Source: a phage
Direction: 5' to 3' (one strand)
DNA: 64,000 nucleotides
Assembly: GCA_018175275.1 (NCBI GenBank)
Contig: GCA_018175275.1_4531.1
Shown: one piece after another, positions 10,504-64,000 of the stretch
How positions within the stretch are numbered: position 1 is the first letter of the stretch
How the letters are laid out: the number at the start of each line of letters is the position of its first letter
Program-made: the position numbers and the translations under genes
Notes under the pieces: model-generated
What the model saw: the letters and a program-made list of their open reading frames with translations, nothing else
What the model was told of the DNA's origin: nothing
Databases searched by the model: none

Positions 10504-10532
10504 TTGACTTGCGGGATTAGTTATGATATTAT
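10504..10532 (+). promoter_or_regulatory. sigma70-type promoter
   Basis: TTGACT-17 bp-TATTAT. Confidence 0.45.
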
Positions 10533-10797: not shown

Positions 10798-11916
10798 ATT
10801 AGCGGTTATATTTTAATTAAACCTGAAGATCTTCATTTATATGTCAACGAAGAAACAATAGCTGCAATTGATTATGATCAGATCGCTTTCCAAGCAGCGT
10901 CTGCATTAGAGAAAAGAACAATCATTGCGAAGCACATCCCTTCAGGTGCTCAAAAGGAATTTAAAAATAAGACAGAGTTTTGGGGTAAAAGCAAGACTAA
11001 AATTGGAGGTTGGCTAGGAGACACAAATGCAGAAAGAGCCTCCAAAAACAAACGTCCCTTCACAAAGGAAGAGTTCGAAATTATTGATAAGCAATACCCG
11101 CCAGAAGATATCGGACACACCTTCCAAGCAGCTAAAACAAAAGTCTTAGGTATTCTAAAACATCTACGTTTAGAAAAATATTGCGGAGTTATTGGCGTAG
11201 GAAAAACTTTCAGACACGCCTTCAAAATGCCTGTAGAATATAAATCTGAACGATTAGATATCAAACCACTTCAGCTTTCAGAAACCAAAGATTATCTTGT
11301 GGAGTTTCACAATGGTGATGTTGTTACTGTAATAGAAGCTGATGATGAGTTAGAGAAGTATGGTTTCCAAGGTTATAAAGATTATAAAAGGACGGGTAAA
11401 TTTTCTTATATCGTAGTGTCTATAGATAAAGATAGTTTACATACTCCTAGTATCCTTTTTAATTTCTACAAAGAGGATGGAGTATTTAAAAATCCAGATA
11501 TAATTCTTATTGACGAGTCTATTGGCGATATATGGATCGTAGATAAAGGTAAAAAGAAAGAAGTTAAAGGTTGGGGCAGTTACTGGTTAGCATATCAGAT
11601 GCTAATGGGAGATAAAACAGATAGTATCCGACCTTATCAAGATTTTGATATTAAGTTCGGAGATATTACTTGTTTTAATCTTCTTTCAGCTTGTAAAACT
11701 CAAGCAGAACTTTTCCAAACAGTTAAAGATACTTACTACTCATGGTTCCCAGATGGTGTTAATTTTACTTCTTGGGATGGAGAAGAAGTCCATATGACAA
11801 CAGATGAATGGATAGAAACAATTTTCCAGTTGGTATACATGAAACGCTGGGATAATGACGATACAACATTTGAGAGTATGCTTCAGTCATACATCTCGCA
11901 ACAGGAGGCAGAGTGA
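10798..11916 (+). CDS. rnh: RNase H / 5'-3' exonuclease (FEN family), start codon unresolved
   Basis: IAAIDYDQIAF, IEADDEL and LMGDKTDSI resemble T4 RNase H motifs as recalled; frame open from 10786 with no ATG/GTG/TTG until 11227. Confidence 0.55.
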   Translation: MSGYILIKPEDLHLYVNEETIAAIDYDQIAFQAASALEKRTIIAKHIPSGAQKEFKNKTEFWGKSKTKIGGWLGDTNAERASKNKRPFTKEEFEIIDKQYPPEDIGHTFQAAKTKVLGILKHLRLEKYCGVIGVGKTFRHAFKMPVEYKSERLDIKPLQLSETKDYLVEFHNGDVVTVIEADDELEKYGFQGYKDYKRTGKFSYIVVSIDKDSLHTPSILFNFYKEDGVFKNPDIILIDESIGDIWIVDKGKKKEVKGWGSYWLAYQMLMGDKTDSIRPYQDFDIKFGDITCFNLLSACKTQAELFQTVKDTYYSWFPDGVNFTSWDGEEVHMTTDEWIETIFQLVYMKRWDNDDTTFESMLQSYISQQEAE

Positions 11917-44753: not shown

Positions 44754-45425
44754 CTATTTAATGTTCAGTCTGGCACACAAACGAGAAACAGTTTTAGCAT
44801 CCCATTTACCACCACGTGCTGTTGCTATTTTCTTACTATTGAATTTTTCAGCAATAGTTTTGTAAGGTGTATTTAAATCTCTAAGGATCTCCAAGCGTTC
44901 ACGGAATGTCTCTGCAAAAGCGTCTGCTTTAACAGAGTTGTATTCCATTTTTCCTTTTCTACGTGCAGCGGCAGTTTTAGGATTAGCACTGCCTAATAAA
45001 ACACCTTTGCTTTTTGCTACAGCAAGCCCCTTTTTAATACGATCAGCAATACCTCTAACTTCTTGTTCAGCCAGAACAGACAGAAGCTGTATAACCATTT
45101 TATCTGCGTCTGGCATGATGGCTATCTTAACATCAATCATTTCTAGAAGAGTTGCTACGGAGGCGTTGTTACGACCCAAGCGGTCAACTTTAGCTACCAA
45201 TAAAGTTGCTCCGGTAGCTTTACACATTTCAACCGCTTTAACCAGTTCCTTACGTTGCTTCCAATCGCCCTTACCCGAATAGTATTCAGAAAATTGACCA
45301 ATAACTTCCGCATCAGGCACAGAGTCTAAGAAGTAACGGATATCATTCTCTTGGCTCTCCATACCATATTGTGCCTCACCTTTTTTCTGTTTAGAAAGAC
45401 GACTGTAAACAACAAACTTTTTCAT
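44754..45425 (-). CDS. serine recombinase (resolvase/invertase family)
   Basis: VYSRLSKQKKGEAQ (catalytic Ser region), VDRLGRN, LAEQEVRGIADRIKKG; C-terminal HTH-like tail; AGGAG upstream. Confidence 0.75.
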   Translation of the reverse strand: MKKFVVYSRLSKQKKGEAQYGMESQENDIRYFLDSVPDAEVIGQFSEYYSGKGDWKQRKELVKAVEMCKATGATLLVAKVDRLGRNNASVATLLEMIDVKIAIMPDADKMVIQLLSVLAEQEVRGIADRIKKGLAVAKSKGVLLGSANPKTAAARRKGKMEYNSVKADAFAETFRERLEILRDLNTPYKTIAEKFNSKKIATARGGKWDAKTVSRLCARLNIK

Positions 45426-45454
45426 AACCACTCCTAAACCATTGCTGTATTCTC

Positions 45455-45484
45455 ACTTTACAAAACGAATAAACACTTGTCAAG
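45455..45484 (-). promoter_or_regulatory. sigma70-type promoter for recombinase gene
   Basis: Minus strand TTGACA-18 bp-TAAAGT, no downstream stem-loop. Confidence 0.45.
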
Positions 45485-45495
45485 GTATTTATTAT

Positions 45496-45708
45496 TTACA
45501 GCCATTCTACTCTTAAGCAGTATTCCTCGACATGTTGTTTACGCTTGTTTTTGTCTATGTAAGTGTATTCAACAAATGTCCCAAGATAGTCCTTGTCTAC
45601 ATTGTGTGGGCTATTGATTGGACATTTAGTACGACAAACCCGTTGCCACTGACGAAGAATTACGGCTTTGTTTTTAGGATCAAAGGGATGAGGGTAATGT
45701 ACCTTCAT
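45496..45708 (-). CDS. hypothetical protein
   Basis: 70-aa ORF; AGGAGGCG upstream. Confidence 0.55.
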   Translation of the reverse strand: MKVHYPHPFDPKNKAVILRQWQRVCRTKCPINSPHNVDKDYLGTFVEYTYIDKNKRKQHVEEYCLRVEWL

Positions 45709-46032
45709 TCACGCCTCCTGTTTTAGTCGAAAAATATTTTGAATAACTAGAGATGTATAGTTATCACTTAGTCCCATAAGTTCTACTTCCAAGTTTCGAA
45801 TATCTTCCACCGTAGGAGGATATGTTGGTAAAAATGCTTGAGCATTGCCAGATCCAACCTCATTGCTGTAAGCAGTTGTAAAATTGTAAGATACAAAACA
45901 TGAAACACCTTTTTGTCGGTACCCGATTAATCGACGAATACACCAGATAAGAGCCAAACCTATGAGAACACCTCCTAAACCAGCTAACAAGAAGGATAAG
46001 TTCATAATAGCTTCGTTAACAACTGCTTGCAT
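45709..46032 (-). CDS. membrane protein
   Basis: 107 aa with TM-like LSFLLAGLGGVLIGLALIWCI; AAGGAGAAA upstream. Confidence 0.6.
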   Translation of the reverse strand: MQAVVNEAIMNLSFLLAGLGGVLIGLALIWCIRRLIGYRQKGVSCFVSYNFTTAYSNEVGSGNAQAFLPTYPPTVEDIRNLEVELMGLSDNYTSLVIQNIFRLKQEA

Positions 46033-46042
46033 TCTTTTCTCC

Positions 46043-46342
46043 TTAGTTGTGTAAACCCAAATGTGCTACAACTTCTCTACGATAAGATAACTGCATAGCG
46101 ATTTTATAGCCAGGATGAAAACCATTTACATCAATGTCATCAAACCAAACCTCAAATGAACCGTGTTTAAGAGTCATTAAGTTAATATACCATTCAATAG
46201 TATAATGATCGTTAGCAATACCTTCGATGTAAAATTCTCGACAACAGTGAGATAAATCTTCACTTGTTTCACGTTTCCAGTCTTTGATAGCACCCTTCTC
46301 TTTGGCTTTATTCAGAATGTGGATCAGGTCTTCAACTTGCAT
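46043..46342 (-). CDS. hypothetical protein
   Basis: Internal ATG of track ORF 46043..46390 with AAGGAGAG upstream. Confidence 0.55.
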   Translation of the reverse strand: MQVEDLIHILNKAKEKGAIKDWKRETSEDLSHCCREFYIEGIANDHYTIEWYINLMTLKHGSFEVWFDDIDVNGFHPGYKIAMQLSYRREVVAHLGLHN

Positions 46343-56360: not shown

Positions 56361-56594
56361 TTATAACGCTTCATAGATTGAGTAGATCCGGTTTGCCAGG
56401 TCATTACGAAAGCGGAATTTTTCATCACGTTTAATCATCAGATCCTTAAAACCGCATTCTTTCAATGCTTCATTAACTTTATGGCGGCAAACGTTCATAT
56501 TATCCTGCGCGTCACCAATAAACTTATTACTGTGATGCATTGCTTTGATCTCTTCCTCTAACACCAGGGCAACTACTGCGATCATCTTTTTCAT
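56361..56594 (-). CDS. hypothetical protein
   Basis: 77-aa ORF; AGGAAGAGG upstream. Confidence 0.55.
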   Translation of the reverse strand: MKKMIAVVALVLEEEIKAMHHSNKFIGDAQDNMNVCRHKVNEALKECGFKDLMIKRDEKFRFRNDLANRIYSIYEAL

Positions 56595-56623
56595 GCGTCT
56601 ATCCTCTTCCTATTGCGTTCAAT

Positions 56624-56639
56624 GGGGCGTTACCGCCCC
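56624..56639 (-). promoter_or_regulatory. intercistronic RNA stem-loop
   Basis: GGGGCG-GUAA-CGCCCC between co-directional genes. Confidence 0.4.
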
Positions 56640-56648
56640 GCTTATGGT

Positions 56649-56885
56649 TTATTGATTGATGTTATAATGAAAGTTATTTTCTTCAATAGCTTTTAAAATA
56701 AAAGCCGTGATCGCTTTCGTGTCTACTTGTTCGAACGTATCAGAATAGCACCAATAATAATCATCCCCTACTTTCGGCGGGTAAACCTGGACAAGGAGAT
56801 CGCCACCTGGTTGATCTATAAGCTCAACATGCAAGCCGGATGATTCAGCGGTTTTAACGGCGTTTAATACTGTTGCAATACTCAT
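56649..56885 (-). CDS. hypothetical protein
   Basis: 78-aa ORF; AGGGAAAGA upstream. Confidence 0.55.
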   Translation of the reverse strand: MSIATVLNAVKTAESSGLHVELIDQPGGDLLVQVYPPKVGDDYYWCYSDTFEQVDTKAITAFILKAIEENNFHYNINQ

Positions 56886-56905
56886 AATCTTTCCCTTTCT
56901 GATGT

Positions 56906-56921
56906 GGGGCGTTGCCGCCCC
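56906..56921 (-). promoter_or_regulatory. intercistronic RNA stem-loop
   Basis: GGGGCG-GCAA-CGCCCC between co-directional genes. Confidence 0.4.
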
Positions 56922-56929
56922 TTTGTTGA

Positions 56930-57229
56930 TTAGATCGCTGTTTCCAGTAGTTCGGCTAACGTCTTACCGCCTGATAGTTGGTCTAACGTTTGCTCTTCTG
57001 GCAAGAAATTAGCTGATATTAAACCGACTTGATTCCCTTTGTGCCAGTTAGCCTGGCGGATGATTCCATCCTTTAAGGATTTTACCGCCATTGTGCAACC
57101 GTCGCCAAATGATTCATTTTTATGGTCCATCACTTCATAAGCGCCCAGTTTGCTGCTGTTAGGCACCATTAACGCGAACACATCACCAACAACCAGTTTT
57201 TCTACGGTAACAATAGCGATAGTTTCCAT
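56930..57229 (-). CDS. hypothetical protein
   Basis: 99-aa ORF; GAGGAAAA upstream. Confidence 0.55.
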   Translation of the reverse strand: METIAIVTVEKLVVGDVFALMVPNSSKLGAYEVMDHKNESFGDGCTMAVKSLKDGIIRQANWHKGNQVGLISANFLPEEQTLDQLSGGKTLAELLETAI

Positions 57230-57244
57230 TTTATTTTCCTCATT

Positions 57245-57305
57245 ATCGGCGGCACCATTGCCGCCCTACGTGGTAAATATTAGCACACTGGCGATCTGTG
57301 TCAAT
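57245..57305 (-). promoter_or_regulatory. PeSL-like cassette (early promoter + 5' stem-loop)
   Basis: Minus strand TTGACA, TAnnnT-type -10, GTAGGGCGGCAATGGTGCCGCC hairpin. Confidence 0.55.
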
Positions 57306-57310
57306 ACTTT

Positions 57311-57697
57311 TTATTCAATATAAATCAAATTATCTTCACCAATGTAAGCCGACACGTTCGGCATAAACTTAGCTGCATTTGTTAGGCGGTTCGCCGTGTT
57401 AGTGGTGTATATTTCAGGGCGATCCCAAAATCCTACGCCGTGACCGTTACGGGTAAAATGTAAATCATTCCCGATCTGGTTGGCTGTTGCGCCGTCGCTC
57501 ATTGCCTCAGAGATAGCGGCAAGATTAGCATTAATAAAGGCTGTTACATCCTGGGCGATCCGTTCGTCCGCGCTAGGAGAAAAATCATAATCGTCTAAGT
57601 TATCAATAAAATTACCTTCATGATCCCTGGCTGATTCAGCAAAAATAAAGGCTTCTTTATAGCCGTTGATGATTTCAATAATGATTTCTGTTTTCAT
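57311..57697 (-). CDS. hypothetical protein
   Basis: 128-aa ORF; start overlaps upstream stop. Confidence 0.55.
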   Translation of the reverse strand: MKTEIIIEIINGYKEAFIFAESARDHEGNFIDNLDDYDFSPSADERIAQDVTAFINANLAAISEAMSDGATANQIGNDLHFTRNGHGVGFWDRPEIYTTNTANRLTNAAKFMPNVSAYIGEDNLIYIE

Positions 57698-57909
57698 GCT
57701 GTACGCTCGACAATAATAATGGTTTGCGGTATCTCGTTTTCTACTACTAATAAGGCTTTTTTCTGCGTGATAGATATTTTAACACGTTGTAAAGTAGCGG
57801 TAAAATCTTTCATTTCATTATGCGCGGATTTAGTGCAATGCCAGATCTCAGGCTTACCTATTTGCAAGCCGCGTAAAAATTCTGTTTTACCTGTCTTATT
57901 CGTGATCAT
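57694..57909 (-). CDS. hypothetical protein
   Basis: Internal ATG of track ORF 57694..57918 with AGGTGA upstream. Confidence 0.5.
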   Translation of the reverse strand: MITNKTGKTEFLRGLQIGKPEIWHCTKSAHNEMKDFTATLQRVKISITQKKALLVVENEIPQTIIIVERTA

Positions 57910-57919
57910 TTGATTCACC

Positions 57920-58024
57920 TTAACCGATACCGTGGGAAGATAGGATCATATTAGCCATAGTTGCAACCACTCCAACCGATAACGCCAGGCCCACTATTAC
58001 AACCGTGAAAATTTTCTCTAACAT
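57920..58024 (-). CDS. small hydrophobic peptide (about 34 aa)
   Basis: Not in track; directly downstream of PeSL; MLEKIFTVVIVGLALSVGVVA. Confidence 0.3.
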   Translation of the reverse strand: MLEKIFTVVIVGLALSVGVVATMANMILSSHGIG

Positions 58025-58039
58025 GATTCTACCCTCATT

Positions 58040-58105
58040 AATGGGCGTTGCCTTATTGCCCCGCCCTATGTCGTACACTTTACCAGATAACCGCGTATTG
58101 TCAAA
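58040..58105 (-). promoter_or_regulatory. PeSL-like cassette (degenerate stem)
   Basis: Minus strand TTGACA-16-TAAAGT then GGGCGGGGCAATAAGGCAACGCCC. Confidence 0.5.
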
Positions 58106-58300
58106 CTATTTTTTACAAGGGATCAGTAAACTCCTTGCTACTGCTTCACGTAAACCTTTACTTTTTATTAGATCTATTGTTGCAGGGTGGCAAGTAAAAG
58201 CCTTTGACCATTTTTGATCACCTGGTTTACGGGCGAAAATGTATACTTCCCCGTCGATTTCATCCCAACGAGTATTGCTTGTTAATTTTTTAAGCGCCAT
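58106..58300 (-). CDS. hypothetical protein
   Basis: Internal ATG of track ORF 58106..58330, whose first 10 codons lie in the PeSL hairpin. Confidence 0.5.
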   Translation of the reverse strand: MALKKLTSNTRWDEIDGEVYIFARKPGDQKWSKAFTCHPATIDLIKSKGLREAVARSLLIPCKK

Positions 58301-58319
58301 GATGATTTCTCTTTTAGTT

Positions 58320-58380
58320 GTGAGCGGCACTATTGCCGCCCTACGAAATACATTCTATCAAGTAATAAACTATTGTCAAG
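58320..58380 (-). promoter_or_regulatory. PeSL-like cassette
   Basis: Minus strand TTGACA-16-TAGAAT-7 nt-GTAGGGCGGCAATAGTGCCGCTCAC. Confidence 0.6.
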
Positions 58381-58564
58381 ATTTATTTTACTTCCCAAAC
58401 GGAAAATTCGCTGCCTGTTGGGATCATCTTTTTAATCTTGTTTGCTGCCGCTACCAGGTCAACGGCTTGCACTGTAATAATATAACCAATTGTTGAGGCT
58501 GTTGCGTTGAAAGTTTTCATTATATTACCCTTTAATACAGGCGGGATTAATCCCGCCTTGTTGA

Positions 58565-58735
58565 TTACTCTTCATCGTTGCCGTTATAGTATTCAATGCC
58601 GTTTTCATCGGTTACGGTGATGTTAACGCCACCGATAGCAACACGATCACGGGCAAACGTCATAGCTTCATTTAAATCTTCAGACCAAAAAATATTGTGA
58701 CCTTTGCGTGATACATAAAACATAGTCGGGATCAT
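58565..58735 (-). CDS. hypothetical protein
   Basis: Internal ATG (residue 29) of track ORF 58565..58819; upstream part is the PeSL. Confidence 0.5.
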   Translation of the reverse strand: MIPTMFYVSRKGHNIFWSEDLNEAMTFARDRVAIGGVNITVTDENGIEYYNGNDEE

Positions 58736-58754
58736 GATTTGTTTCTCTTCTGTT

Positions 58755-58820
58755 ATGAGCGGTGGACCATTCCGCCGCCCTATGTGGTAAACTTTACTAC
58801 GTTGTTTGCCTGCTGTCAAA
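58755..58820 (-). promoter_or_regulatory. PeSL-like cassette
   Basis: TTGACA plus GGGCGGCGGAATGGTCCACCGCTC hairpin. Confidence 0.55.
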
Positions 58821-59105
58821 TTATTTTTTAATGTTTTGCCCTACAAAATTGATCACTTCCTTAAGCTGTCTCTCTGTCATGATCGTACCTGGTAATTCCT
58901 CTTTAATTTCTTCCGGTAAATAAATATTACCACGCCAGGTTAACAAACAACCGTTTTGATCTTCGCAGATAGAATAGGAAAACATCCATTCGCAATCATT
59001 TTCAAGCTCCCAAAAACACAAAAAGTCTTCTTTCCCTAAGTTTTCAACGGTTAAACATAATCCGCGACGTGCTGCATAATTACTTAGGCTTTTTGTGATT
59101 TTCAT
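58821..59105 (-). CDS. hypothetical protein
   Basis: Internal ATG (residue 18) of track ORF 58821..59156; upstream part is the PeSL. Confidence 0.55.
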   Translation of the reverse strand: MKITKSLSNYAARRGLCLTVENLGKEDFLCFWELENDCEWMFSYSICEDQNGCLLTWRGNIYLPEEIKEELPGTIMTERQLKEVINFVGQNIKK

Positions 59106-59121
59106 GATTTTTCTCTCTTCT

Positions 59122-59183
59122 TGTGAGCGGCACCATTGCCGCCCTACAAGATACATATTACCAGACTAAGCCGACTTGTCAAA
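59122..59183 (-). promoter_or_regulatory. PeSL-like cassette
   Basis: TTGACA, GTAGGGCGGCAATGGTGCCGCTCACAA. Confidence 0.6.
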
Positions 59184-59293
59184 CTATTTTTTCTTTTTCT
59201 TTGCTTCCAACCGTCTAAGGTTACGGCTTGACTTATTGCGCAAGGCGCTTAGATCGTCGTACCCTTTCCATGCTTGCATATCTTTCGGATTCA
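59183..59293 (-). CDS. small basic protein (about 36 aa)
   Basis: Not in track; GGGGA upstream of ATG; Lys-rich tail. Confidence 0.3.
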
Positions 59294-59303
59294 TGTTATC
59301 CCC

Positions 59304-59465
59304 TTACTTGTTAGCCGGATTATATGCCAGGACCGCGCCGCTTGCTTTCACGCTTTCCGCTTCATAGTTGCGCAGATCGTTTTCTGTAAGGTTGAGCGCG
59401 ATCACTTCCTCGATCTCAACGTCAGCGGCAAGGGCGATCTCTTTGATAATGTCTGTTGTTTTCAT
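59304..59465 (-). CDS. hypothetical protein
   Basis: Internal ATG of track ORF 59304..59504 with AAGGTG upstream. Confidence 0.45.
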   Translation of the reverse strand: MKTTDIIKEIALAADVEIEEVIALNLTENDLRNYEAESVKASGAVLAYNPANK

Positions 59466-59475
59466 AGTACGCACC

Positions 59476-59595
59476 TTATAAGATGATTGATAAGATAGTG
59501 ACAACGAAAGTGATTATACTGATGGCAAATGTCATCTTTTTACCTTCGGATACTGCCGGATTTTCTACCGTGTATTCTACTATGTACTTGCTCAT
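59476..59595 (-). CDS. small membrane peptide (about 39 aa)
   Basis: Not in track; hydrophobic C-terminus FAISIITFVVTILSIIL. Confidence 0.3.
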   Translation of the reverse strand: MSKYIVEYTVENPAVSEGKKMTFAISIITFVVTILSIIL

Positions 59596-59614
59596 CGTGT
59601 AATCCTCTCGTTTG

Positions 59615-59690
59615 CTTTGAGAACTATTCCCGCCGCCCTATGAATTAAATATACACTATCTGAAAATGATTGCAAGCCTTTTTCTAAATT
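59615..59690 (-). promoter_or_regulatory. PeSL-like cassette (degenerate)
   Basis: TTGCAA-18-TATTTA then TAGGGCGGCGGGAATAGTTCTC. Confidence 0.45.
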
Positions 59691-59692
59691 AT

Positions 59693-59977
59693 TTATGCAG
59701 TAAACAAACCATCATTTACAACGGCGGCGATGATCTCCCGTGCCATTGATTCAGGGAAAGGGGCGCTATAGTCCTGGCTTGTCTCATCGGTATCAGTGAT
59801 CCAATGATAAGCTAACGAGTAAAAGCCTTTACTAACTGTTTTCAGTGAGATGATGATCACTCGGTCAAGCTTATTGGTGAATGTTGCCGTTAATGTGTTA
59901 CCCTCCTGCGTCATGTTGGACAAGTAAGCGGGATCATTAATCAGGGAAAACATTAGCACGATGTTAGCTTTACTCAT
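59693..59977 (-). CDS. hypothetical protein
   Basis: Internal ATG (residue 11) of track ORF 59693..60007 with GAGGA upstream. Confidence 0.5.
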   Translation of the reverse strand: MSKANIVLMFSLINDPAYLSNMTQEGNTLTATFTNKLDRVIIISLKTVSKGFYSLAYHWITDTDETSQDYSAPFPESMAREIIAAVVNDGLFTA

Positions 59978-59994
59978 GATTGCATCCTCAAAGG

Positions 59995-60055
59995 GGCGCG
60001 GCACCATTGCCGCCCTACGCGATAACTATAACACAATATAAAACAGGATCAACCT
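59995..60055 (-). promoter_or_regulatory. PeSL-like cassette
   Basis: TTGATC-16-TATAGT then GTAGGGCGGCAATGGTGCCGCG. Confidence 0.55.
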
Positions 60056-60261
60056 TTATTTTTCCACGGTGTCAGCTTGTTAATCATTGGTGATAAATAG
60101 CGTTTACCAACGTAAAACAGTACGCCAACTGATGCAACGGCGGCGATCTCATGTAAGGAGGAAGGTCGCGCGGTGTCATAGTAGGTACCAATAATAGCAA
60201 TAGCGGCTACTGCGGCAATGTCTGTAATAATTTTTTCTTGTTTTGTTGTGATAGTGGTCAT
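60049..60261 (-). CDS. small hydrophobic protein
   Basis: 70 aa; IAAVAAIAIIGTYY and VASVGVLFYV segments. Confidence 0.5.
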   Translation of the reverse strand: MTTITTKQEKIITDIAAVAAIAIIGTYYDTARPSSLHEIAAVASVGVLFYVGKRYLSPMINKLTPWKNKG

Positions 60262-60277
60262 AATGTTTTTCTCTTTT

Positions 60278-60340
60278 ATGTGGTCGGGAACTATTCCCGC
60301 CCTACGTGATACATCTTATCATACTTGGTTATGCTGTCAA
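60278..60340 (-). promoter_or_regulatory. PeSL-like cassette
   Basis: TTGACA-16-TAAGAT-7 nt-GTAGGGCGGGAATAGTTCCCGACC (compensated stem). Confidence 0.6.
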
Positions 60341-60346
60341 CCGTTT

Positions 60347-60532
60347 TTAAAGATATTTTATGCTAATGACGTTTTCAGGTTTAACCTTGTTGTGATGTGC
60401 ATCAACATAGATCAAACCATCGTCAGAAAAGCCCAGGATCACGCCCTGCGCGATAAAACCATACGCATCACGGTAACGCACGGCTATTTTTAATGTTGCG
60501 TTGTAGGCTGTTTTAAGCTCGTTTAAAGTCAT
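60347..60532 (-). CDS. hypothetical protein
   Basis: 61-aa ORF; GAGGAT upstream. Confidence 0.5.
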   Translation of the reverse strand: MTLNELKTAYNATLKIAVRYRDAYGFIAQGVILGFSDDGLIYVDAHHNKVKPENVISIKYL

Positions 60533-60551
60533 TTTTGTTTATCCTCTACAT

Positions 60552-60582
60552 GTAAAAAGAAAGGGCGCTTGATGCGCCCTTG
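60552..60582 (-). terminator. terminator-like hairpin (near-duplicate of 56318-56348)
   Basis: AAGGGCGCA-UCAA-GCGCCCUU then U-run on minus strand. Confidence 0.45.
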
Positions 60583-60588
60583 TTATGT

Positions 60589-60735
60589 TAATCCTCTAAA
60601 TCCATCCAATTATATTTGTCACTCTTCCCGCGCTTTGTTTTATTGCGCTTGTCGCCTTTGCGGATCACTTCCTCGTTCCAGGCCTTGCGGATCTTGGAAG
60701 ATTGAATTTTTTCTGCGCGATTAGATGTATTCATT
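60589..60735 (-). CDS. small basic protein (about 48 aa)
   Basis: Not in track; GAGGAAACAAA upstream; K/R-rich. Confidence 0.35.
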
Positions 60736-60749
60736 TTGTTTCCTCTTCA

Positions 60750-60808
60750 TATGAGCGGCACCATTGCCGCTATATTGTTAATTTAAACTGTTTTGTAAAA
60801 TTGTCAAG
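60750..60808 (-). promoter_or_regulatory. PeSL-like cassette (degenerate)
   Basis: TTGACA plus GCGGCAATGGTGCCGCTCA hairpin but no GTAGGG box. Confidence 0.45.
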
Positions 60809-60813
60809 GTTTA

Positions 60814-61167
60814 TCATTCATAAGAGCAAGCAAGGATCACGCCTGCAATATAAAGCCAATAATTTTCCCTTTCTCGTTGGATTTTATCATCGCTGCTATT
60901 CTCTTTAATGTATCCCCAGGATGTTAACAGGCGATCAATTTCCCAATATTCGAAAGCGATATTGATATCTGATGGCAAGCCTTGTAACCATGATGCAAGT
61001 GCTTTAACAATACTATAATTAAAACGTGATTGGTTATCAGGGTACCAGTACTCGGAATTAAAACGGCGCATCAATTCCGCGATCTTCTCTTTTTCGGTTG
61101 TAATACCGTAATCATTAAAATCGATAGCGGCAAGGATGTACTCTTTAATTGCATTTTGTGCTTTCAT
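60814..61167 (-). CDS. hypothetical protein
   Basis: 117-aa ORF; GAGAGAAAG upstream. Confidence 0.55.
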   Translation of the reverse strand: MKAQNAIKEYILAAIDFNDYGITTEKEKIAELMRRFNSEYWYPDNQSRFNYSIVKALASWLQGLPSDINIAFEYWEIDRLLTSWGYIKENSSDDKIQRERENYWLYIAGVILACSYE

Positions 61168-61184
61168 GGTCTTTCTCTCTTTTT

Positions 61185-61245
61185 GAGCGGGAAACCATTT
61201 CCCGCCCTATGTGTAACAGTTTACTAAAAATTAAATCGGTGTCAA
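61185..61245 (-). promoter_or_regulatory. PeSL-like cassette
   Basis: TTGACA-16-TAAACT then TAGGGCGGGAAATGGTTTCCCGCTC (compensated stem). Confidence 0.6.
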
Positions 61246-61248
61246 GCT

Positions 61249-61470
61249 TTATTTTGTTACTACCATTTGGTACCCTGTTTCAATGTTGCTAAACACTGTT
61301 ATCCCGTCCTGACGTTCACTCATTAGCATACAAGGCGCTAACATCCTTTCTACTGCCTTGCACTCATTATAAGCGGCGGTGATGTCTCCTGCTGCCTTGT
61401 CTTCTGTAGTAAATGTCTCGTTTACGTAAACCTGACCAGCAACAACGGCGACAATAGCAAAAGTAATCAT
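61249..61470 (-). CDS. hypothetical protein
   Basis: 73-aa ORF beginning MITFA; AAGGAAAC upstream. Confidence 0.5.
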   Translation of the reverse strand: MITFAIVAVVAGQVYVNETFTTEDKAAGDITAAYNECKAVERMLAPCMLMSERQDGITVFSNIETGYQMVVTK

Positions 61471-61544
61471 GATGTTTCCTTGTTAATAGTGGTTTCTCTT
61501 CTCTATAGCGCCCATTATAAGGCGCTATAACGAAAAGTCAACGA

Positions 61545-61712
61545 TTATTTTTTAAGGCTTAAAGTACCTAACTTGTCAGCATGACGCAGACCAGGGAAGA
61601 TCCATTTGCCTGATTTATCTTTTACCGGAGCTTTAAGCGTAGCGCCCAGGTTGGCGGCGTTAACTTTACGTGCAACGTTGCGAGCGGCTTCACGGGTAGC
61701 GAAAGTGATCAT
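61545..61712 (-). CDS. small basic protein (about 55 aa)
   Basis: Not in track; begins MITFA like the downstream gene; GAGGAAAAC upstream. Confidence 0.4.
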   Translation of the reverse strand: MITFATREAARNVARKVNAANLGATLKAPVKDKSGKWIFPGLRHADKLGTLSLKK

Positions 61713-61729
61713 GATGTTTTCCTCTTCTC

Positions 61730-61800
61730 TTTGTTAGGCGGTTGGCTATTCCACCGCCTTGATGAATACAGTTTACTTTATTTTTGCAGTATTGCAAGCG
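61730..61800 (-). promoter_or_regulatory. PeSL-like cassette (variant)
   Basis: TTGCAA-16-TAAACT then GGCGGTGGAATAGCCAACCGCC. Confidence 0.5.
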
Positions 61801-61803
61801 GTT

Positions 61804-62019
61804 TTATGAAATAATTGTCAAAGTAAAATTGTAATCCTTTGACAGTTTATATTGCACCTTGTTACCATAGTAGTCACCTTTACGTAAAGATCCACGAATA
61901 CCGATAACATCCTTCACGTCTTTTAAATTTTTCACGCCTGTAATGTCTTTATTGAAATACTCGTCATCTGAAAATAAAACTTGACTTGCATTTTTCAGTA
62001 AAGTGCGGATATTAGCCAT
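61804..62019 (-). CDS. hypothetical protein
   Basis: 71-aa ORF. Confidence 0.5.
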   Translation of the reverse strand: MANIRTLLKNASQVLFSDDEYFNKDITGVKNLKDVKDVIGIRGSLRKGDYYGNKVQYKLSKDYNFTLTIIS

Positions 62020-62039
62020 CGTGATAATCTCTCTTCTGT

Positions 62040-62101
62040 TGTGAGCGGCACCATTGCCGCCCTATGTAATATATTCTACTCTTTTTCTTTCCGGTGTCAA
62101 C
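62040..62101 (-). promoter_or_regulatory. PeSL-like cassette
   Basis: TTGACA then TAGGGCGGCAATGGTGCCGCTCAC. Confidence 0.6.
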
Positions 62102-62110
62102 AATCTTTTT

Positions 62111-62338
62111 TCAGATTAATTCATCCAGGCACAACAAGCGATCAACGTTGAGATCGGTTAGGCTGATGGTTGGCACCTGGTAGGATTCGATGTACTCGAC
62201 GCTCGCATATTCTCCAAAATTAGCAATAGCCCACTTATTCAAGATCTCACATACATCATTAATCTTTTTGTTTGTTACAACTGCTACAACCTGGGAACTG
62301 CCAACGGTGCCGGATACACGAACAATATTGATAGCCAT
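62111..62338 (-). CDS. hypothetical protein
   Basis: 75-aa ORF beginning MAINI. Confidence 0.5.
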   Translation of the reverse strand: MAINIVRVSGTVGSSQVVAVVTNKKINDVCEILNKWAIANFGEYASVEYIESYQVPTISLTDLNVDRLLCLDELI

Positions 62339-62357
62339 AATCTTTAATCTCTCTGCT

Positions 62358-62423
62358 GTGAGCGGGAAACCATTTCCCGCTCTCTATGTAATACAGTTTA
62401 CTCTTTTTATTCGTGCTGTCAAT
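62358..62423 (-). promoter_or_regulatory. PeSL-like cassette
   Basis: TTGACA then GAGCGGGAAATGGTTTCCCGCTCAC. Confidence 0.55.
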
Positions 62424-62428
62424 GCTTT

Positions 62429-62794
62429 TTATAAATCTTTTTTACGTTTAACATCGCTCGCATGACTGTATACAGTGATCCCATTATCACGGCAAAAACG
62501 GGAAAGATACGCGCCGCGTGAAAACTCTTTACCTTCCATATTAATAACCTTGCTAAATTCTTCCAGGGCGACGGTATCAAAATGATCACCATAACCATAT
62601 TGAAACGGAACGTTAACCACCTCGATCAGTTTACCGCCGATCTCAACGTCAACCATTAAAGAAAAATATGTGTTACCGTAGGACTGTTGAAACCAACGAC
62701 GGGCGCTAATATGCACCGCCTCAATGCTGGATAGTTCAATTTTAGCCGTGTCAGCCAGGGTAGCATAAGAGGAAACATTGATATTAATAGCCAT
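62429..62794 (-). CDS. hypothetical protein
   Basis: 121-aa ORF beginning MAINI. Confidence 0.55.
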   Translation of the reverse strand: MAININVSSYATLADTAKIELSSIEAVHISARRWFQQSYGNTYFSLMVDVEIGGKLIEVVNVPFQYGYGDHFDTVALEEFSKVINMEGKEFSRGAYLSRFCRDNGITVYSHASDVKRKKDL

Positions 62795-62804
62795 GATATT
62801 ACTC

Positions 62805-62862
62805 TCTTTTTTGGTTAGTGGGAAGTATTCCCGATAAAAGTTATTATGCTTATACTATCACT
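62805..62862 (-). promoter_or_regulatory. PeSL-like cassette (variant stem)
   Basis: TTGACA then CGGGAATACTTCCCAC. Confidence 0.5.
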
Positions 62863-62892
62863 CATTGTCAATAGTATAAGACTAAAACTTTT

Positions 62893-63072
62893 AACGATAA
62901 TCGTTATAGGCTTTATTGACCTGGCGAATATAGCATTCAAAAGCTAGATCAATAGATTTATATTCACGGATATAATCACCATAGGAAACCACATACATTT
63001 CTATAGCTTCCTCATATGCCAGGATGATAGAATCTAAACCTATAATCTCAGTTTTTGCAATGATAGTCATGA
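62893..63072 (-). CDS. small protein (about 59 aa)
   Basis: Not in track; AAAAGG upstream; directly downstream of a PeSL. Confidence 0.4.
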
Positions 63073-63087
63073 TGTTAACCTTTTATT

Positions 63088-63149
63088 GTTGGCGGCACCA
63101 TTGCCGCCCTACGTGATAAACTATACCAGAATTTTAAACAGTGTCAACC
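63088..63149 (-). promoter_or_regulatory. PeSL-like cassette
   Basis: TTGACA then GTAGGGCGGCAATGGTGCCGCC. Confidence 0.6.
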
Positions 63150-63153
63150 GTTT

Positions 63154-63516
63154 TTATTCGTAAATTTTACCGCTTTCGGCCCATACCATAACGCGGCGCA
63201 TACTATCCCAAGTGTTTTGATCCAGGTTTAAGCCGTGCAACTCTTCGGTACTTCCCAGACCAGGTACCGCCTTGTTGTAAGTAGCATATAAGCGCCCTTG
63301 ATACTCATACGCCAGAATAAGATCCGTTTGAATCATCTTTTTAAGCATAGCATTAAGCATCATATTAGCGGCATGTTGATCACGTTTTAGCGGTAACATG
63401 TCAATAAGGGCGCGATAAGCTGAAACATGAATATCAACCGTTTCACGTGGTAAATTTTTCATATCATCGCGGAAAGATACCAGATTAAACATGATAGTAT
63501 TGATTTGCTTGCTCAT
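63154..63516 (-). CDS. hypothetical protein
   Basis: 120-aa ORF. Confidence 0.55.
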   Translation of the reverse strand: MSKQINTIMFNLVSFRDDMKNLPRETVDIHVSAYRALIDMLPLKRDQHAANMMLNAMLKKMIQTDLILAYEYQGRLYATYNKAVPGLGSTEELHGLNLDQNTWDSMRRVMVWAESGKIYE

Positions 63517-63554
63517 TGTATTGCCCTTTTTGATTTGGCGGGGAAGTATTCCGC

Positions 63555-63618
63555 CGCCTTATGTGGTACATCTTATCAGCTTATTAGCTGTTGTCAATAA
63601 TGTTTTTAGATAATTTTT
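63555..63618 (-). promoter_or_regulatory. PeSL-like cassette
   Basis: TTGACA then AAGGCGGCGGAATACTTCCCCGCC. Confidence 0.55.
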
Positions 63619-63898
63619 AACTATATGATCCGCATCGTTCGCAGTAGTGATCATCGTCGTCATCTGCCACTTGGTTGATAAAGTGATCGACCTTCGATCT
63701 CAGGTTTTTATAATTGTTCTCTACTTCCTGCAATCTTCGTTGGTAGTATTCCAGGGCTTCCACGTATGCTGATTGTTCGGTTTTAGCTTGCATAGCTAAA
63801 TTCATGCCGCGCGTCTCATCGTATAGCCAAAAACCATCAGTGCACTCACTCATTGAGAGAGTAGGGCTTAACTCTTTATGATTAATTACCTTGCTCAT
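63617..63898 (-). CDS. hypothetical protein with C-terminal CxxC
   Basis: Track ORF 63617..63931; likely start at internal Met (MSKVINHKE); ends HYCERCGSYS. Confidence 0.5.
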   Translation of the reverse strand: MSKVINHKELSPTLSMSECTDGFWLYDETRGMNLAMQAKTEQSAYVEALEYYQRRLQEVENNYKNLRSKVDHFINQVADDDDDHYCERCGSYS

Positions 63899-63934
63899 AA
63901 TGTGCGCCTTATAGAATGATTGAAATAACAATTA

Positions 63935-63992
63935 CTACAGTGATCCACACTGGAACGGCTAACAAAATAGCGTTAATCGTTCCAACCGTCAA
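63935..63992 (-). promoter_or_regulatory. promoter with different downstream hairpin
   Basis: Minus strand TTGACG-17-TATTTT followed by CAGTG-TGGAT-CACTG. Confidence 0.45.
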
Positions 63993-64000
63993 GCTATTTT

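Follow-up and report, generated by a model that had tools for sequence, protein, structure and literature searches.

The question raised by this locus is why nearly every small gene at one end of a phage DNA should be preceded by its own promoter and its own stem-loop, and what the stem-loop does. The DNA is a stretch of 64,000 nucleotides (contig GCA_018175275.1_4531.1, hereafter the window), whose region 56,361–64,000 (7.6 kb) carries on the minus strand a series of repeated promoter-plus-hairpin modules, called cassettes below. We propose, with a probability of about 0.55, that the cassette is a modular early-expression unit, that its hairpin stabilises or insulates the mRNA, and that the module doubles as a recombination substrate.

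The region was 94–96% identical to the complete genomes of the phAPEC8-like myoviruses Schickermooser, ESCO13 and Ro121c4YLVW. Judged by this similarity, the source lineage is the genus Phapecoctavirus of the Stephanstirmvirinae, and it is not T4-like. In the three records the region is made of small "hypothetical protein" genes, with no annotation of promoters or stem-loops. The rightward small-gene unit of Schickermooser runs from about 130.4 to 150.0 kb, near the right genome end; it is longer than the region, so that what the window contains is just the distal portion of the array. The 20 array proteins tested all fell in distinct PHROGs, 19 of function unknown and one annotated only as a membrane protein, and the gene content of the array varied among 95%-identical genomes. 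The array is best explained as the promoter-dense early (host-takeover) genes of a phAPEC8-like myovirus.

Organization of the Promoter Array

Seventeen near-consensus sigma-70 promoters were present on the minus strand, with -35 elements starting from 63,597 to 57,304. The array spans 57,227–63,597. This agrees with the initial annotation, which had described a dense array of about 17 cassettes (17 promoters were found, 14 of them with a strong hairpin), and the succession of promoter, stem-loop, Shine-Dalgarno sequence (SD) and ATG was as described; the density was one per ~390 bp instead of ~450 bp, and the spacer measured 16–17 bp instead of 16–18 bp. The -35 was an exact TTGACA in 13 of the 17 promoters and the -10 had the form TAnnnT, one being CATAAT; a TGn extended -10 was visible in many. 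An A-rich tract, usually containing the stop codon of the preceding gene, was located upstream of all 17. A complete cassette of ~85 bp (80–95 bp) is composed, in this order, of the A-rich tract, the -35, the spacer, the -10, a C-R-T motif, a GC hairpin, a linker, the SD and the ATG.

The octamer TAGGGCGG occurred 11 times between 57,261 and 63,111, always on the minus strand, for an expectation of 0.36 +/- 0.64 from shuffles of the 64-kb window, none of which (0/100) reached 11 copies. The array comprises 26 gene starts, 17 with a promoter cassette and four with a promoter-less GC hairpin, the rest being tightly coupled to the preceding gene.

A Hairpin in the Predicted Leader

For each of the 17 promoters the predicted 5' end was folded, the sites being picked by promoter alone, irrespective of structure. 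The transcription start was taken as the purine of the C-R-T motif, 7–8 nt after the -10, as deduced from promoter geometry. A strong leader hairpin was obtained at 14 of the 17 sites, with folding free energies (dG) of -11 to -17 kcal/mol and, for 13 of them, z-scores (z) of -2.7 to -4.9. It was weak or degenerate at the promoters 62871 and 59675, and absent at 61541. Stems had 5–10 bp and loops 3–6 nt, where 5–7 bp and 4 nt had been announced, and the 5' arm was G-rich. The separate box GTAGGGCGG formerly placed upstream of the stem has to be abandoned, because its GGGCGG is the 5' arm itself.

At 15–16 of the 17 promoters the hairpin occupied roughly positions +2 to +30 of the predicted transcript and lay 8–14 nt past the -10. 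The predicted leaders measured 36–50 nt, with 1–6 unpaired nucleotides (mode 3) before the hairpin. From the hairpin to the ATG extended an unstructured, A/C-rich linker of 17–25 nt with a purine-rich SD (AGAGAGA, AAGAGG), and the stretch from SD to AUG was mostly unpaired by prediction. In a MAFFT alignment of the window copies the loop AAT was present in 16/16, the discriminator and the box were conserved too, and eight copies shared a GGCGGCA...TGCCGC core. The Rfam 15 covariance models gave no match at E <= 1 in the window segment 56000–64000.

Four hairpins lacking a promoter were located 18–29 nt upstream of ATGs. The first, 58539..58558, is intercistronic (AGGCGGGA-TTAA-TCCCGCCT, dG -14.2, 18 nt upstream of ATG 58520). 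The hairpins 56906..56921 (GGGGCG-GCAA-CGCCCC, 20 nt upstream of ATG 56885) and 56624..56639 (GGGGCG-GTAA-CGCCCC, 29 nt upstream of ATG 56594) both have a GNRA loop and a dG of -12.6. The fourth is a canonical intrinsic terminator within the array, 60561..60581, a hairpin followed by TCTTTTT, 28 nt upstream of ATG 60532. The similar distance of the four from the ATGs argues for a promoter-independent role in RNA. The first three show the hairpin-linker-SD-ATG layout of the cassettes, without the promoter half.

The hairpins might instead be terminators or attenuators of upstream transcription that isolate each small gene as a monocistronic unit, as for the stem-loops of the promoter early stem-loop (PeSL) elements known from T4-type phages. 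One stem-loop of the T4-type phage RB49 cut read-through about as much as rrnB T1 (PMC2839356), and the RB49 PeSL stem-loops that we scanned were likewise without obvious U-tracts. It also fits a terminator role that the promoter-less hairpins come after stop codons, and that the minus strand of the 7.6-kb region has just two canonical terminators, 60581–60561 and the one that closes the array, 56347–56327. However, no U-tract was found behind any cassette hairpin. Moreover, each hairpin is downstream of its own predicted start, so that an efficient terminator would abort its own mRNA at about +25, a problem that the RB49 stem-loop escapes by lying inside the promoter. We consider termination an unlikely function of these hairpins.

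Covariation of the Stems and Orthologous Leaders

Copies of the cassette were harvested with a promoter-plus-hairpin descriptor written in Python, which gave 99 instances and 60 unique hairpins at 16 loci: the window, Schickermooser, phi92, rV5, the jumbo phage SP27, and IMG/VR contigs of 97–153 kb and 348 kb. Breadth was judged on multi-copy arrays only, and IMG/VR contigs with a single match were set aside, as these had been selected by the pattern itself. The hairpin started 10–12 nt after the -10 in 66 of the 99 copies. Whole-cassette and mixed-loop MAFFT alignments disagreed with the structure; the set was thus split by loop size, and loop-centred windows of unique sequences were used.

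In the class with 3-nt loops, changes on both sides were seen in six of the eight pairs, and the covariation score was 0.408 compared to 0.141 +/- 0.021 in shuffles (0/500) and to at most 0.153 with a slid partner. In the class with 4-nt loops it was 0.442 compared to 0.155 +/- 0.034 (0/500). These counts are partly circular, because being a hairpin was the condition for entering the sets. At the 16 loci, the distinct self-complementary stems numbered more than 40. In every harvested hairpin the G-rich arm came first and the C-rich arm second (CCGCC...GGCGG was never seen), as in the RB49 PeSL stem-loops; this order is unchanged by reverse complementation and is uninformative on the strand.

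Orthologous genes provided a comparison independent of hairpin selection. Window genes were matched by tblastn to the genomes of phi92, rV5-like phages and Asteriusvirus, at 60–97% amino acid (aa) identity. In these three groups the orthologs were likewise preceded by a promoter, followed by a hairpin at an unchanged position of the leader, with unrelated stems. In the leader of a 71-aa gene, GGGCGGCA/TGCCGCTC of the window corresponds to GGGGAGAA/TTCTCCCC of the ortholog. A hairpin swap between near-identical flanks was observed at the window promoter 58104, with GGGCGGGGCAATAAGGCAACGCCC in the window and CGCGGGAATACTTCCCGCC in the rV5-like contig L038. Since the stems are replaced while the position is kept, it is the structure and not the sequence that is maintained. 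The claim of the initial annotation that stem sequences vary while pairing is kept was therefore borne out, both by covariation at about three times the shuffled level and by these orthologs.

The same architecture exists in phi92, in rV5-like phages and in the 350-kb Asteriusvirus jumbo phages. Several array genes have homologues in Vequintavirinae and Asteriusvirus, each with a cassette in the style of its resident genome. Asteriusvirus cassettes have CATsAA together with GGGGAG stems, and rV5-like and other contigs have the loops ACAAG, CACT and AAC. The loop AAT, invariant in the window, was consequently rejected as a universal feature. The variant cassette type of the promoter 62871 also precedes the homologous gene in SP27, the cassette travelling with its gene.

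These data bear on the trivial possibility of a functionless hairpin, a palindrome simply inherited by recently duplicated cassettes. The window copies are indeed highly similar (eight share the GGCGGCA...TGCCGC core), and gene conversion between them is plausible. Recent duplication is difficult to reconcile with the >40 self-complementary variants across 16 loci, with the significant covariation, and with hairpins that persist at orthologous positions, their stems wholly replaced, in front of proteins only 60–77% identical. It is largely excluded.

Recombination at the Cassettes

The cassette would also serve as a recombination substrate, since a module of ~85 bp repeated ~17 times in direct orientation offers homology for recombination. 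Alignment blocks with Schickermooser, ESCO13 and phi92 ended at cassettes, and one cassette in one genome aligned to both cassettes flanking an extra gene in the other. Three junctions could be resolved base by base, and all were chimeric cassettes. Compared to Schickermooser, one crossover was located inside the hairpin of the window promoter 62422, and a second one inside an identical GTAGGGCGGCAATGGTGCCGC, covering box and hairpin, at 57304. The third was in the promoter spacer of an ESCO13 cassette compared to those of window promoters 58379 and 58104. The gene gain and loss breakpoints that had been anticipated at cassette boundaries thus map, in these three cases, inside cassettes. As read from the alignments, these comparisons show recombination between cassettes that deletes, inserts and swaps single gene-plus-cassette units.

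Possible Role of the Hairpin

In the reading that we favour, host RNA polymerase would fire all cassettes right after infection, starting at the C-R-T motif. The hairpin would most likely act in the RNA, because it is in the predicted leader and because the promoter-less copies are placed with respect to ATGs. Being a stem-loop almost at the 5' terminus, it would hinder RppH and RNase E in reaching that end; between the cistrons of read-through transcripts it would obstruct both the scanning of RNase E and the 3' exonucleases; and it would insulate the ribosome-binding site from upstream sequence. The outcome would be a uniformly high and context-independent expression of any small gene placed downstream. 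The direct repeats would recombine, with loss, gain and swapping of single gene-plus-cassette units, as proposed for the PeSLs of T4-type phages. RppH and RNase E need at least two unpaired 5' nucleotides and prefer at least three; RppH disfavours a pyrimidine at position 2 and is blocked by a 5'-terminal stem-loop (PMC8833179). Position 2 of the predicted cassette transcripts is a U.

Several points weigh against this proposal. The 1–6 unpaired 5' nucleotides are a prediction from promoter geometry, and three unpaired nucleotides are a borderline number for both RppH and RNase E, so that protection may be only partial. Covariation alone does not distinguish an RNA from a DNA structure. Among internal transition appositions, an unbiased count gave 18 G.T versus 11 A.C, including one lineage with a conserved C.A mismatch, and the comparison of sense and antisense folding energies gave p = 0.35 (Wilcoxon); with these values, the sequence by itself does not allow the structure to be attributed to the transcript. 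To some extent, breakpoints at cassettes are to be expected, since only intergenic breakpoints give viable genomes. Finally, the box RTAGGGCGG and the loop AAT are conserved in Stephanstirmvirinae beyond the needs of a stem, which could indicate sequence-specific recognition, or recent common descent or gene conversion.

The absence of strand asymmetry in stability would suit an inverted repeat acting in DNA, either as a recombination hotspot or structure-specific target, or as an extruded hairpin like those of the N4 virion-RNA-polymerase promoters. Stems of 5–10 bp are short for cruciform extrusion. Two of the three mapped crossovers fell in box and hairpin, but this is the longest stretch common to the cassettes, and crossovers there need no special mechanism. 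The N4-type hairpin promoter was set aside: every hairpin is preceded by a complete sigma-70 promoter, which makes a hairpin promoter unneeded. The placement of the promoter-less copies relative to ATGs also speaks against an action in DNA. The authors of the PeSL study raised the speculation that a recombination protein might target GGGG...CCCC motifs (PMC2839356), and this too is in line with a DNA role, which we nevertheless hold to be very improbable.

The conservation of box (11 times) and loop (AAT in 16/16) in Stephanstirmvirinae leads to another possibility, in which the hairpin, the RTAGGGCGG box and the AAU-containing loop are a tag read by a phage or host protein that regulates the early regulon post-transcriptionally. 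Such a protein might selectively protect the tagged transcripts during host mRNA destruction, or, when early expression gives way to middle expression, coordinate their shut-off or cleavage. Nearly all predicted early transcripts carry the element. In T4, the Srd protein stimulates RNase E. A homologue of Srd was proposed in the rV5 genome paper, the protein gp11 (PMC3606486). However, box and loop differ between lineages (Asteriusvirus, rV5-like phages and other contigs), which makes a universal sequence-specific reader unlikely, and no candidate binding protein was seen among the 20 array proteins tested. A regulatory tag of this kind is doubtful.

Comparison with Known Elements

The initial annotation had matched the cassettes to PeSLs. 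These were described in the T4-type phages RB49/phi1, PST and nt-1 (Arbiol et al. 2010, PMC2839356; Comeau et al. 2014, PMC4122927) as strong sigma-70 early promoters with a stem-loop mostly between -35 and -10 or overlapping the -10; they flank ORFans in hyperplastic regions and mediate recombination and mini-circle formation (PMC2839356). The same article lists a minor subclass with the stem-loop "downstream of the -10" (PMC2839356). The match held for the composite make-up: A/T-rich tract, strong sigma-70 early promoter, GC stem-loop with a G-run then a C-run, conserved leader, SD and ATG. It also held for the placement before small orphan genes of a hyperplastic early region, and for the recombination that is the defining behaviour of PeSLs and yields indels of one gene and chimeric cassettes. 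In two window cassettes out of 17, those of 61541 and 62871, a stem-loop even spans the -10 or the -35.

It did not hold for the position of the stem-loop or for the T4-type lineage. When 13 intergenic regions of the RB49 hyperplastic region were scanned, a G-run/C-run stem-loop was found inside the promoter in most and in the leader in none. Being inside the promoter, the RB49 stem-loop is absent from the transcript of its own cassette, whereas the window hairpin, without U-tract, begins ~10–12 nt after the -10, in the predicted leader. The PeSL stem-loop is reported to terminate upstream transcription, and the window hairpin is a part of the gene's own predicted leader. PeSLs belong to Straboviridae; the present element is found in Stephanstirmvirinae, Vequintavirinae and Asteriusvirus.

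In the predicted position of its hairpin the cassette resembles the 5'-terminal stabilising stem-loops of the E. coli ompA and papA leaders (Emory, Bouvet and Belasco 1992, as cited in PMC3997798). In both cases a stable hairpin, with a stem sequence free to vary, is located a few nucleotides from the (predicted) 5' end and is followed by an unstructured leader and the ribosome-binding site. The ompA type belongs to the leader of a single gene, whereas the window element is repeated, mobile and phage-borne, with ~17 copies per array, and its three predicted unpaired nucleotides are borderline for protection. With intrinsic terminators the hairpin shares a GC-rich stem of 5–10 bp and a loop of 3–6 nt, but the cassette hairpins have no U-tract and the true terminators 60581–60561 and 56347–56327 are distinct from them. 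The genes recall the "morons" of lambdoid phages, accessory genes expressed autonomously with their own flanking regulatory signals; morons have no conserved flanking repeat and are thought to be moved by illegitimate recombination, whereas here the cassette supplies the homology.

No prior description was found in the literature on promoters, stem-loops or transcriptomes of Phapecoctavirus, phi92, rV5 and Asteriusvirus, or in the papers on rV5, the E. coli O177 phages and Schickermooser, a search that did not include the phi92 and PVP-SE1 genome papers. What appears to be new is that PeSL-like, putatively mobile regulatory cassettes exist outside the T4-type phages, where at least three further coliphage lineages share them, and that their stem-loop has moved into the predicted leader.

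Gene Starts inside the Cassettes

Four open reading frames had been noted to begin inside cassettes, where automated annotation would mis-call their starts, and this proved correct: the SD-preceded ATGs are downstream. The longest-frame start at 58330 is a GTG in the hairpin (SD-preceded ATG at 58300), the one at 58819 is the TTG of the -35 itself (ATG 58735), the one at 59156 overlaps the -10 (ATG 59105), and the one at 60007 is an ATG in the hairpin loop (ATG 59977). A deposited example is Schickermooser_00282, which begins at a GTG inside the hairpin equivalent to window position 58330. The PHROG profiles 20168 and 13850 have 11–12 additional N-terminal residues. The cassettes explain such recurrent mis-annotation, with starts placed in the -35, the -10 or the hairpin.

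Description of the Individual Cassettes

The cassettes, all on the minus strand, were numbered in the direction of transcription (dG in kcal/mol). Cassette 1 (63514..63597) precedes a 120-aa gene with its ATG at 63516. It has TTGACA at 63597–63592, TAAGAT at 63575–63570, and the hairpin GGCGG-C-GGAA/TTCC-CCGCC at 63558–63537 (dG -14.1, z -4.3). In Cassette 2 (63068..63147; -35 at 63147, -10 TATAGT at 63125–63120, ATG 63070), the hairpin 63108–63091 is GGCGGCA/TGCCGCC (dG -14.4).

Cassette 3 (62792..62880) is of the variant type. A 10-bp inverted repeat at 62880–62849 surrounds the -35 (62871) and folds at -11.0; it is followed by a -10 CATAAT (62848–62843), a weak hairpin GGGAA/TTCCC at 62832–62820 (dG -5.5) and the ATG 62794. 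In SP27, the version of this inverted repeat before homologous genes has longer arms, CAGTACTATCAA...TTGATAGTACTG.

Cassette 4 (62336..62422; -35 at 62422, -10 TAAACT at 62400–62395, ATG 62338) showed the strongest values, its hairpin GAGCGGGAAA/TTTCCCGCTC at 62382–62360 having a dG of -16.7 and a z of -4.9; it is the cassette chimeric with respect to Schickermooser by a crossover within the hairpin. Cassettes 5 and 6 both fold at -14.4: the former (62017..62100; -35 at 62100, -10 TAGAAT at 62078–62073, ATG 62019) with GGGCGGCA/TGCCGCTC at 62062–62043, the latter (61710..61797; -35 TTGCAA at 61797–61792, -10 TAAACT at 61775–61770, ATG 61712) with GGCGGTGG/CCA-A-CCGCC at 61759–61736.

Cassette 7 (61468..61541) has the layout of the RB49 PeSLs. 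Its leader, between the -10 TATAAT (61519–61514) and the ATG 61470, is devoid of hairpin (dG 0). An inverted repeat ATAGCGCC/GGCGCTAT at 61530–61503 (region 61496–61537, dG -16.4), downstream of the start of the -35 TTGACT (61541), carries the -10 in its loop.

The next three cassettes are of the usual type. Cassette 8 (61165..61245; -35 at 61245, -10 at 61223–61218, ATG 61167) has the hairpin GGGCGGGAAA/TTTCCCGCTC at 61207–61185 (dG -15.8). That of Cassette 9 (60732..60807; -35 at 60807, -10 TAAATT at 60785–60780, ATG 60734) is AGCGGCA/TGCCGCT at 60771–60754 (dG -11.4), and the core CGGGAA/TTCCCG at 60299–60285 forms that of Cassette 10 (60259..60340; -35 at 60340, -10 at 60318–60313, ATG 60261; dG -11.2).

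Cassette 11 (59975..60052) starts with TTGATC at 60052, then TATAGT at 60030–60025, a hairpin at 60015–59995 (dG -14.1) and the ATG 59977. Cassette 12 (59593..59675; -35 TTGCAA at 59675, -10 at 59653–59648, ATG 59595) is degenerate: the box TAGGGCGG is retained and the 3' arm has decayed, leaving a weak hairpin at 59631–59619 (dG -4.8, z -0.4). Cassette 13 (59103..59182) regains a hairpin of dG -15.8 at 59144–59125, between the -10 TAATAT (59160–59155; -35 at 59182) and the ATG 59105.

Cassette 14 (58733..58819; -35 at 58819, -10 at 58796–58791, ATG 58735) carries the conserved C.A mismatch in its hairpin at 58780–58757 (dG -15.0). The hairpins of the following two have the same dG of -14.9, at 58341–58322 in Cassette 15 (58298..58379; -35 at 58379, -10 at 58357–58352, ATG 58300) and at 58066–58043 in Cassette 16 (58022..58104; -35 at 58104, -10 at 58082–58077, ATG 58024), where GGGCG..GC/GC..CGCCC includes an internal loop. 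Cassette 17 (57227..57304; -35 at 57304, -10 at 57282–57277, ATG 57229) ends the series with GGCGGCA/TGCCGCC at 57265–57248 (dG -14.2) and is chimeric with respect to Schickermooser, the crossover being in box and hairpin. A weak 18th site (63896..63992), conserved in phi92, consists of TTGACG N17 TATTTT from 63992, a weak hairpin at 63952–63938 and the ATG 63898.

Implications

If the hairpin is functional, the cassette would represent a compact and portable rule by which large lytic coliphages obtain strong, even and lasting expression of dozens of unrelated host-takeover genes in the first minutes of infection. The cassette extends the PeSL concept of a mobile regulatory element past the T4-type phages, with a different anatomy and in at least three other lineages sharing homologous early genes. 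In practice, the cassette is a simple signature of early regions and true gene starts in therapy candidates among phAPEC8-, phi92- and rV5-like phages. It offers promoter, 5' stabiliser and ribosome-binding-site parts for synthetic biology, and makes directly testable the fate of phage early mRNAs with respect to RNase E and RppH during host shut-off.

A wider scenario can be offered tentatively, as a speculation that we think rather unlikely as a whole. The leader hairpin might be an "early-transcript tag" shared across phage families. Present on almost every early mRNA made from a sigma-70 promoter in Stephanstirmvirinae, Vequintavirinae and Asteriusvirus, it would be read by a factor of the host or of the phage, which would spare or time phage mRNA during the destruction of host mRNA. 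The hairpin might simultaneously provide unrelated coliphages with shared homology for the exchange of single host-takeover genes, as an integron-like pool with no integrase.

Related Elements and Flanking Sequence

Outside the array, no hairpin of this family was found at promoter-like sites elsewhere in the 64-kb window, and only a handful of such sites had any downstream hairpin. Two consensus-like sigma-70 promoters on the plus strand, at 10504 and 15993, are each followed by a hairpin of unrelated sequence: CCTAC...GTAGG then a T-run, and TGGGAGGA...TCCTCCCA, respectively. From these two promoters, leader hairpins may be general in this phage. Schickermooser has one family-type cassette that is not part of the array: GCGGGGAA-TAG-TTCCCCGC (minus strand, -35 at locus position 10842) lies in the oppositely transcribed unit, beside a TerC-like gene cluster.

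Past the terminator that closes the array, the window segment 55000–56300 (~1.3 kb) has no open reading frame of at least 60 aa. It aligns with the right-hand extremity of the linear record of Schickermooser (locus positions 44996–46195), which indicates that the window crosses the genome terminus of that record.

Some database entries related to the array deserve a comment. About 22 "Campylobacter phage" records, together with "Acinetobacter" and "Pseudomonas" phage records, were 78–94% identical to the array, under host labels that look doubtful. A 71-aa array gene is labelled "phosphoribosylpyrophosphate synthetase" in several records, probably a propagated mis-annotation. The record MT119359.1 (Enterococcus phage heks, a siphovirus) contains at positions 1–1020, on the minus strand, three cassettes of the phi92/phAPEC8 type along with two early genes of E. 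coli phages. Its first ~1 kb matches the window at 85% identity, most likely by chimeric assembly or cross-contamination and not by real transfer.

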